Source: Escherichia coli
GTDB taxonomy: Bacteria; Pseudomonadota; Gammaproteobacteria; Enterobacterales; Enterobacteriaceae
Reading direction: 5' to 3' (one strand)
DNA length: 64,000 nucleotides
Assembly (NCBI RefSeq): GCF_001677475.2
Contig: NZ_CP015229.1
Every line of letters starts with the position of its first letter. Position 1 is the first letter of the stretch. This document shows, in pieces, positions 54,811 to 55,314 of this stretch. Both the position numbers and the translations under genes were made by a program. The notes beneath the pieces were generated by a model. It worked only from the letters and a program-made list of their open reading frames with translations. It made no database searches and had not been told where the DNA came from.

Positions 54811-54842
54811 ATGGCCTGGTATTTTCCAGGCCATTTTTTTTT
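54811..54842. terminator. bidirectional terminator
   Basis: ATGGCCTGG-TATTTT-CCAGGCCAT followed by T9. Confidence 0.85.
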
Positions 54843-55314
54843 AGAAGTCGATCTCTGTATCGCGATTAAATTCATCGCTAAGGTAAAGTGCTTCGCTTGG
54901 GCATTTTCCGTTTTCCAGTAATGTTTCCCAGAAATCTTTATCGAAACACCCCTCAAGATACAGATAGCGGCAGATGTGAAGTAAATCACTTCGTGTCCAT
55001 CCGTGCATGCTGCTACTTGTTACACCATATTCACTTTCTAGTTTATAGAATGTGAGCGCCTCCCGGTCGTGCCAGGCTTTGCACAGACGATCGTATATCT
55101 TTTTAGCTTTGTTTTTAGATGTGCCGAAAAACTCTTCGTAAATTTCATGTGGGCGAGTAGGAATACTTCCGTCGCCATCCTGCAAGAAAGGATAAACATC
55201 TGCCTCCCAGGCATACACGTAAGAATCGCTGAACTCATCATAGTGTTTACCAAGGTGGAGAATCTGCAATCGTTGCTGAATGAACATTGCTTTTTTCAGT
55301 TCATTTTCTGACAT
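54841..55314 (-). CDS. orphan opposite-strand cargo protein, unknown function
   Basis: 157 aa with a strong RBS (AGGAGGAACGAACTATG) and its own terminator. It is the only minus-strand gene between the replication and head modules. Confidence 0.75.
   Translation of the reverse strand: MSENELKKAMFIQQRLQILHLGKHYDEFSDSYVYAWEADVYPFLQDGDGSIPTRPHEIYEEFFGTSKNKAKKIYDRLCKAWHDREALTFYKLESEYGVTSSSMHGWTRSDLLHICRYLYLEGCFDKDFWETLLENGKCPSEALYLSDEFNRDTEIDF

Follow-up and report, generated by a model that had tools for sequence, protein, structure and literature searches.

X157, a mobile cargo gene in the pre-capsid slot of an Escherichia coli capsid-forming PICI: a candidate phage-interference or toxin-neutralising protein from an undescribed family

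The stretch of Escherichia coli DNA analysed here (64,000 nucleotides of contig NZ_CP015229.1, assembly GCF_001677475.2; hereafter the window) contains a satellite of the capsid-forming PICI type (cf-PICI) that spans roughly 46.8 to 61.6 kb (46822-61602). Its left part encodes, in this order, an integrase, AlpA-like regulators, a RepA-family helicase, an SSB, a PerC-family regulator (Pfam E = 1e-35) and an 82-aa protein, followed on the minus strand by the gene under study, X157; beyond it lie the genes for an HK97-type capsid, protease, portal, connector, HNH, TerS and TerL. X157 thus separates the replication module from the capsid gene, the first of the packaging genes. The satellite itself is apparently inserted within the large-terminase gene of a resident prophage (45689-46882 and 62130-62855): an ORF for an N-terminal TerL fragment lies directly left of the integrase and a C-terminal fragment ('TerL endonuclease subunit') to the right of the island, and the annotation of E. 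coli ETEC1749 shows the gene split in the same way. Such a disruption would inactivate the packaging of the resident prophage. Directly after the RepA-family helicase gene we also find a 54-nt imperfect direct repeat (78% identity; 53332-53385 and 53500-53553) with AAAAGTGGGG motifs, a candidate iteron or satellite replication origin.

The initial annotation of this region had called a 157-aa minus-strand ORF, which we recovered with the same coordinates and the sequence quoted for it (Table 1), and had described it as the only minus-strand gene in the right two thirds of the satellite. This holds in the near-identical annotated islands of E. coli ETEC1749 and LH50-c, where no other CDS between the replication module and the right end lies on the minus strand. 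The AGGAGG ribosome-binding site was also read correctly, except that it lies 8 nt from the ATG and not 7.

Table 1. Coordinates of X157, its cassette and the borders of the slot in the window.
Feature	Position	Strand	Basis or description
Conserved 82-aa hypothetical gene, left hotspot border	54555..54803	plus	annotated in relatives
Hairpin GGCCTGG-N6-CCAGGCC with T9 run	54810..54843		both-strand terminator scan
Cargo gene X157	54841..55314	minus	ORF encoding 157 aa, 18.7 kDa, pI 4.9, all-alpha
Inserted cassette, approximate extent	54844..55365		X157, RBS and ~50 bp upstream; aligned with empty and alternative-cargo islands
Shine-Dalgarno AGGAGG of X157	55323..55328	minus	direct sequence reading
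Candidate X157 promoter	55356..55384	minus	upstream alignment of 12 islands
Capsid-operon regulatory backbone, right hotspot border	55366..55608	plus	near-identical in islands without the ORF
HK97-type major capsid protein (MCP) gene	55609..56754	plus	ORF; annotation of relatives; 534 IMG/VR relatives

An alignment with two islands whose slot is empty and one with an alternative cargo delimits the inserted cassette, which measures ~520 bp and has a GC content of 42% compared to 50% for the island; only ~50 bp upstream of the ATG are specific to X157 when islands lacking the ORF are aligned. On the left the cassette is bordered by the 82-aa gene, with which the replication/regulation module ends and which has counterparts of 32-51% identity in diverged cf-PICIs, and by a hairpin whose stem-loop (54810-54835) scores as terminator-like on both strands, with a T9 tail on the plus strand and just ATTATTCTAC on the minus strand. 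The hairpin serves the convergent plus-strand 82-aa gene as its terminator, and possibly X157 too. Since an equivalent hairpin follows the 82-aa gene also in islands without the X157 ORF, the terminator belongs to the shared backbone; the bidirectional terminator once assigned to X157 as its own is thus terminator-like on both strands, as had been stated, but is a property of the island.

A similar correction applies to the right border. This segment shows one mismatch to the two empty islands, in one of them, and contains three 10-bp TTGTTCnnGG repeats (55389-55418), just downstream of which the promoter scan identified a plus-strand promoter-like TTTACA-16-TATGTT (55432-55459). Because the repeats are kept in islands without the ORF and adjoin a plus-strand promoter-like site, they belong to the capsid operon, and the phased repeats attributed earlier to the upstream region of X157 are therefore backbone sequence. 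The same control region holds a GC-rich leader of ~150 nt (MFE -54.7 kcal/mol, fold z = -2.4), and a search of Rfam for structured RNA around X157 and the leader gave no credible match; repeats and leader possibly represent an activator site plus a structured leader. The MCP gene, divergent from X157, opens the packaging module.

The flanks of the slot were matched in 155 of 5,426 complete E. coli genomes, and X157 is present in 8 of the 155. When 60 evenly spaced records were sorted into slot states by the length of the matched span, the slot was empty in 30 and carried an insert sized like an unrelated 168-aa minus-strand gene in 19 (the gene was confirmed in three records); X157 was present in three, and in the remaining eight the start of the capsid gene alone was matched. 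The 168-aa alternative cargo was considered as a homologue of X157 and rejected, the two sequences being unrelated. This second gene (L003 3340-3846, minus strand; also L004 and L005) belongs to no Pfam or PADLOC family, shows a sub-threshold match to the RHIM motif (E = 0.003), and has homologues of 48-60% identity that fill the slot in diverged cf-PICIs. Closely related islands thus differ by presence, absence or replacement of the cargo. Moreover, near-identical X157 cassettes (98.6-100%) are found in backbones that encode either a DUF927 primase or a RepA helicase and whose capsid proteins are just 69% identical, which indicates exchange by recombination.

X157 also occupies the same slot in Salmonella Senftenberg, and relatives were found on 37 IMG/VR viral contigs, in 30 of which the gene directly precedes the cf-PICI capsid gene in divergent orientation, while one further contig is cut off at this point. 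The designation of X157 as an 'orphan' is therefore no longer tenable, since its homologues fill the same slot in many diverged cf-PICIs. Across these IMG/VR islands X157 is the most diverged and fastest-evolving syntenic gene (49-60% identity, compared to 66-77% for the capsid, 73-89% for the portal and 79-84% for TerL). We also sampled the slot independently of X157 by anchoring on the MCP (the best 80 of 534 IMG/VR relatives). X157 was found in seven of these 80 loci and the 168-aa gene in five, and elsewhere the position directly upstream of the MCP is taken, in either orientation, by ORFs from more than 20 further unrelated clusters. Among them are recognised defence-type cargoes, i.e., an OLD-like ATPase-TOPRIM, a PDC-S31/DUF2971 protein and a 581-aa HEPN_LA2681 protein, so that the slot accepts diverse cargo including recognised defence systems. 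These context samples are small, some were chosen for the presence of X157, and the neighbouring ORFs come from a simple greedy caller.

The expectation that the slot would vary among related islands was thus borne out (empty, X157, 168-aa gene or any of more than 20 other cargoes), as was the view of X157 as an accessory gene at a module boundary, i.e., an independently oriented gene in a variable slot, some of whose cargoes are known defence genes. The slot corresponds to the pre-packaging variable region, which He et al. (2025) describe as 'expected to encode immune systems'. In other cf-PICIs the pre-capsid slot holds a plus-strand trio of Hcp (T6SS), DUF6402 and a small protein, ~130-1440 bp upstream of the MCP (L098, L106, L109, L110, L116, L128, L131), and in one case a YopJ-family acetyltransferase (L137 1835-2734). 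These modules are satellite-borne competition or virulence cargo, not anti-phage, and with such non-defence genes in the slot, location alone does not imply an anti-phage function. What the comparisons do establish is that X157 is a mobile cargo exchanged among island backbones, situated in a recognised cf-PICI accessory hotspot.

Upstream of X157 a candidate leftward promoter straddles the border of the cassette, with its -35 element CTTACA (55379-55384) in the backbone and, after a 17-nt spacer, its -10 element TAAGCT (55356-55361) in the cassette. This copy agrees with the consensus at 7 of 12 positions and is too weak to pass the threshold of the consensus scan. The same arrangement recurs among the islands aligned: a backbone block, AATAATTTACAAAA, carries the -35 TTTACA, and a -35 followed after 17 nt (16 in one island) by TAnnnT is present in 11 of the 12, with at least five unrelated cassette sequences providing the latter (variants TATGTT, TATGGT, TATTAT, TAGCCT and TATTGT). 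Judged from sequence, this conserved leftward architecture supports a separate leftward transcription of whatever fills the slot, and the pre-capsid slot of cf-PICIs may represent an 'expression socket' in which the -35 comes from the backbone and the -10 from each cassette. A 91%-identical second promoter-like block (ATTCTGGCTGATaTTTAaATAC), preceded by two 17-nt repeats (61678 and 61700), is located just past terL (61678-61757) and may drive a second, post-packaging variable region.

In agreement with the earlier failure to assign the protein to a family, X157 had no usable match in Pfam, NCBIfam, PHROGs (best PHROG E = 0.064) or PADLOC, where no family of PADLOC-DB v2 was hit at E <= 1. PDB sequence profile searches with profiles of 19 and 134 sequences returned matches at chance level, and a literature search with the X157 accessions retrieved no paper that mentions them. 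The AlphaFold2 model is all-alpha and confident (pLDDT 90.2, pTM 0.86). The structure search that had been proposed as a check was carried out with this model, and Foldseek returned no neighbour in the PDB (best E = 4.2) or BFVD (best E = 2.0). Conservation of the protein is nonetheless broad: 19 full-length homologues of 52-63% identity align without indels and share 35 invariant residues, full-length homologues without indels extend down to 42% identity across genera, and an exhaustive HMM search yielded 348 clusters (50% identity) at E <= 1e-3 and 234 at E <= 1e-10. X157 is a genuine conserved protein-coding cargo gene. Its product carries a net charge of -11, and the median pI of the family is ~5. 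The wider family has no invariant polar residue and only four near-invariant positions (E93, R108, R116, Y117), so that no catalytic motif stands out. X157 is the founding member of an undescribed family of acidic, all-alpha, single-domain proteins with no known fold neighbour in the PDB or BFVD.

X157 of the window consists of the bare domain (X domain in the following), while 24 of 134 aligned members (~18%) carry N-terminal extensions of at least 30 aa, in which Pfam recognises RHH_1, PhdYeFM_antitox, MazE_antitoxin, HTH_43 (wHTH) and Aca2_YdiL domains. A closely related RHH domain is fused elsewhere to YfbU (PF03887), and we observed a large set of solitary RHH-YfbU proteins of ~230 aa (P0225-P0288) that parallels the RHH-X proteins and may bear on the regulation of the abortive-infection domain of the Kamadhenu type.

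The genomic neighbourhoods of the relatives showed no recurrent partner gene. An all-against-all BLAST of neighbouring genes across ~45 independent contexts found only syntenic relatives, plus Abi_2-like proteins in few loci. In the majority of members, about half of the RHH-X genes among them, the flanking genes are convergent or unrelated and no candidate toxin is adjacent; next to RHH-X genes one often finds convergent or housekeeping genes. In a few cases the neighbour is basic (pI ~9). An Abi_2-like gene follows the RHH-X gene in one locus (L032) and an Abi_2/HEPN_Swt1-like gene overlaps the start of an HTH_43-X gene in another (L166), their products being 31% identical (E = 8e-35) and both of pI ~9; a SymE-like gene follows the X homologue in Alloalcanivorax (L008), and the gene for a basic 283-aa protein lies 17 bp downstream of a MazE-X gene (L035). 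A search of the 64-kb window for relatives of these basic neighbours gave nothing credible. One weak match in the window was discarded, as it lay in a frame other than the coding one of a minus-strand gene for 816 aa.

Relatives reside on chromosomes and plasmids as well as in a Mu-like prophage and a phage early region, and in a lambdoid phage the relative is a moron on the opposite strand, located between the nin and lysis genes. Others are located beside a short pAgo system, a TIR protein, an SRA-HNH gene and Abi_2/PLD genes. In Citrobacter youngae ATCC 29220 (L024 6001-9716), for example, a 50%-identical X homologue is convergent to a short pAgo and Aga-REase-APAZ pair and also adjoins an Integrase_1-family recombinase, and in Phytobacter (L025) an X homologue is found near a TIR-domain protein.

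Among characterised systems, the Tai (tail assembly inhibition) proteins would, by analogy, be the closest architectural precedent for X157, their positions being equivalent. On PICIs, a Tai protein is encoded by a lone unannotated gene next to pri in the mid-island accessory region, and phage-borne Tai genes are morons located just before the packaging module; TaiEcA of phi80 (orf63) is divergent within the late operon, and a tagged prophage was built to test its expression in the lysogen (He et al., 2024, PMC11364771). X157 shares with them the logic of placement and orientation and, like them, is a single small gene without a match in defence databases. It differs in size (157 aa, compared to 204 aa for orf63 and 26.1 kDa for tagged TaiEcA) and in that no counter-defence gene is evident beside it; furthermore, most Tai homologues are phage-borne, whereas a tblastn search with X157 of 50,697 phage records, phi80 included, gave no match. 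Homology to TaiEcA was rejected (hhalign probability 0.5% against phi80 orf63).

A second likeness concerns YfbU, a domain of the lactococcal single-gene abortive-infection system Kamadhenu (PMC11381338). Both are stand-alone all-alpha proteins of ~160-180 aa, and RHH domains are fused alternatively to YfbU or to the X domain. X157 matched neither the PF03887 profile nor the 1WPB fold, and homology to YfbU was likewise rejected (hhalign probability 0.4%), so that the likeness is one of domain architecture alone. With the hotspots of other satellites (P4 and P2, PMC9122126; 5', 3' and mid-island sites of PICIs; packaging flanks of cf-PICIs, bioRxiv 10.1101/2025.02.11.637232) the slot shares a fixed position between conserved genes, polymorphism by presence or absence and by replacement, and a mixture of known defence genes and unknowns. 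It differs in that the cf-PICI slot described here also carries T6SS-effector and T3SS-effector-like cargo, and in the X157 family itself, which had not been described.

A further comparison is with type II antitoxins that combine an RHH, Phd/YefM or AbrB DNA-binding domain with a globular neutralising domain, for instance the promiscuous Panacea/PanA domain. The X family resembles them in being acidic, in the fusion of some relatives to antitoxin DNA-binding domains, and in the few loci where relatives precede or overlap unrelated basic proteins. X157 itself has neither an adjacent co-operonic toxin (of its two flanking genes, the 82-aa backbone gene is convergent and the MCP gene divergent) nor an N-terminal DNA-binding domain, and its sequence matches no Pfam antitoxin family.

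X157 is oriented opposite to the capsid operon, is preceded by a conserved leftward promoter architecture and has no obligatory partner gene. We tentatively favour the possibility that it is a stand-alone phage-interference or immunity factor that is expressed during lysogeny and acts by protein binding. It would be transcribed alone in the uninduced (lysogenic) state, and its product would bind a basic protein partner of an infecting phage or a competing element rather than act by catalysis or on DNA. The family-wide pI of ~4.9 together with the lack of a catalytic motif speaks for a protein binder; the conserved -35, 17-nt spacer and TAnnnT, the strong RBS and the opposite-strand moron of the lambdoid phage speak for independent expression; the lack of a recurrent partner and the alternative fusion of RHH to YfbU are in line with a single-gene module; and the cargo hotspot with its defence-type genes, together with the short pAgo, TIR, SRA-HNH and Abi_2/PLD genes near relatives, argues for interference with phages. 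Against this reading count the weak promoter in the window (7 of 12 positions, not called by the scan), the non-defence cargoes of the slot, the absence from PADLOC and the lack of a tblastn match in phages, as well as the small context sample and the crude ORF caller. The antitoxin-type fusions and basic neighbours, moreover, suggest a neutraliser rather than an effector, and taken family-wide the evidence is at least as favourable to an antitoxin-like protein binder.

The main rival reading is accordingly that X157 is an orphan antitoxin-like neutraliser of a basic toxin encoded elsewhere, in the host or in a competing element (e.g., of the Abi_2/HEPN or SymE type), and would serve in counter-defence, anti-addiction or immunity. 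We regard this as rather unlikely, though to be taken seriously. The acidity of the family, the RHH, Phd/YefM, MazE/AbrB, HTH_43 or Aca2-like N-termini of 24 of the 134 members, which amount to a classic antitoxin architecture, and the nature of the basic neighbours (Abi_2-like, SymE-like and the 283-aa protein after MazE-X) are all consistent with it, but most members, about half of the RHH-X proteins among them, lack an adjacent candidate toxin, and X157 of the window has neither a partner nor any relative of those neighbours within the window. Counter-defence genes are also usually found in early co-directional operons and not in opposite-strand slots of the lysogeny type.

It is improbable that X157 serves the life cycle of the satellite itself, either by regulating the divergent capsid/packaging operon or by hampering packaging or assembly of the helper in favour of the satellite. 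Its divergent position ~290 bp from the capsid promoter region, the retention of the slot across diverged cf-PICIs and the DNA-binding domains fused to relatives would fit such a role; yet ~95% of the related E. coli islands lack X157 while having a near-identical promoter and leader, so that it cannot be a required regulator, the net charge argues against direct DNA binding, and relatives occur outside satellites on chromosomes and plasmids and in Mu-like and lambdoid phages. No better placed is a function in host fitness or competition unrelated to phages, e.g., as an orphan immunity protein against a secreted polymorphic toxin or in lysogenic conversion. Immunity proteins are typically small, acidic, unannotated and all-alpha, and the Hcp-DUF6402-small-protein and YopJ modules in the same slot of other cf-PICIs point in this direction; immunity proteins of polymorphic toxins are not typically fused to RHH, Phd and AbrB domains, no effector gene was found beside the X gene in the ~45 contexts examined, and several relatives lie in phage genomes or beside anti-phage systems. 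That the ORF is spurious or decaying and has no function, for which the weak promoter consensus of the window copy is the sole argument, is effectively refuted by conservation (homologues without indels at 42-63% identity across genera, 35 invariant residues, 348 clusters), along with the confident AlphaFold2 model and the strong RBS.

It is tempting to speculate, although this broader scenario is itself somewhat unlikely, that the X domain is a widespread module for binding basic effectors which, when joined on chromosomes to RHH, Phd, AbrB or wHTH domains, acts as a neutraliser or sensor that regulates itself and is in some loci paired with Abi_2/HEPN toxins, and that the bare domain was captured by satellites and temperate phages as a lysogeny-expressed immunity system or as an antidote to abortive infection.

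Satellite and prophage hotspots have proved fertile ground for finding new anti-phage and counter-defence genes. Within this setting X157 stands out as an unannotated gene with a confident model unmatched in the PDB and BFVD, a broad family and fusions to antitoxin domains, and may reasonably be regarded as a candidate for a new protein that interferes with phages or neutralises toxins. If either activity proved true, X157 would represent a new protein family in bacterial immunity or counter-immunity.
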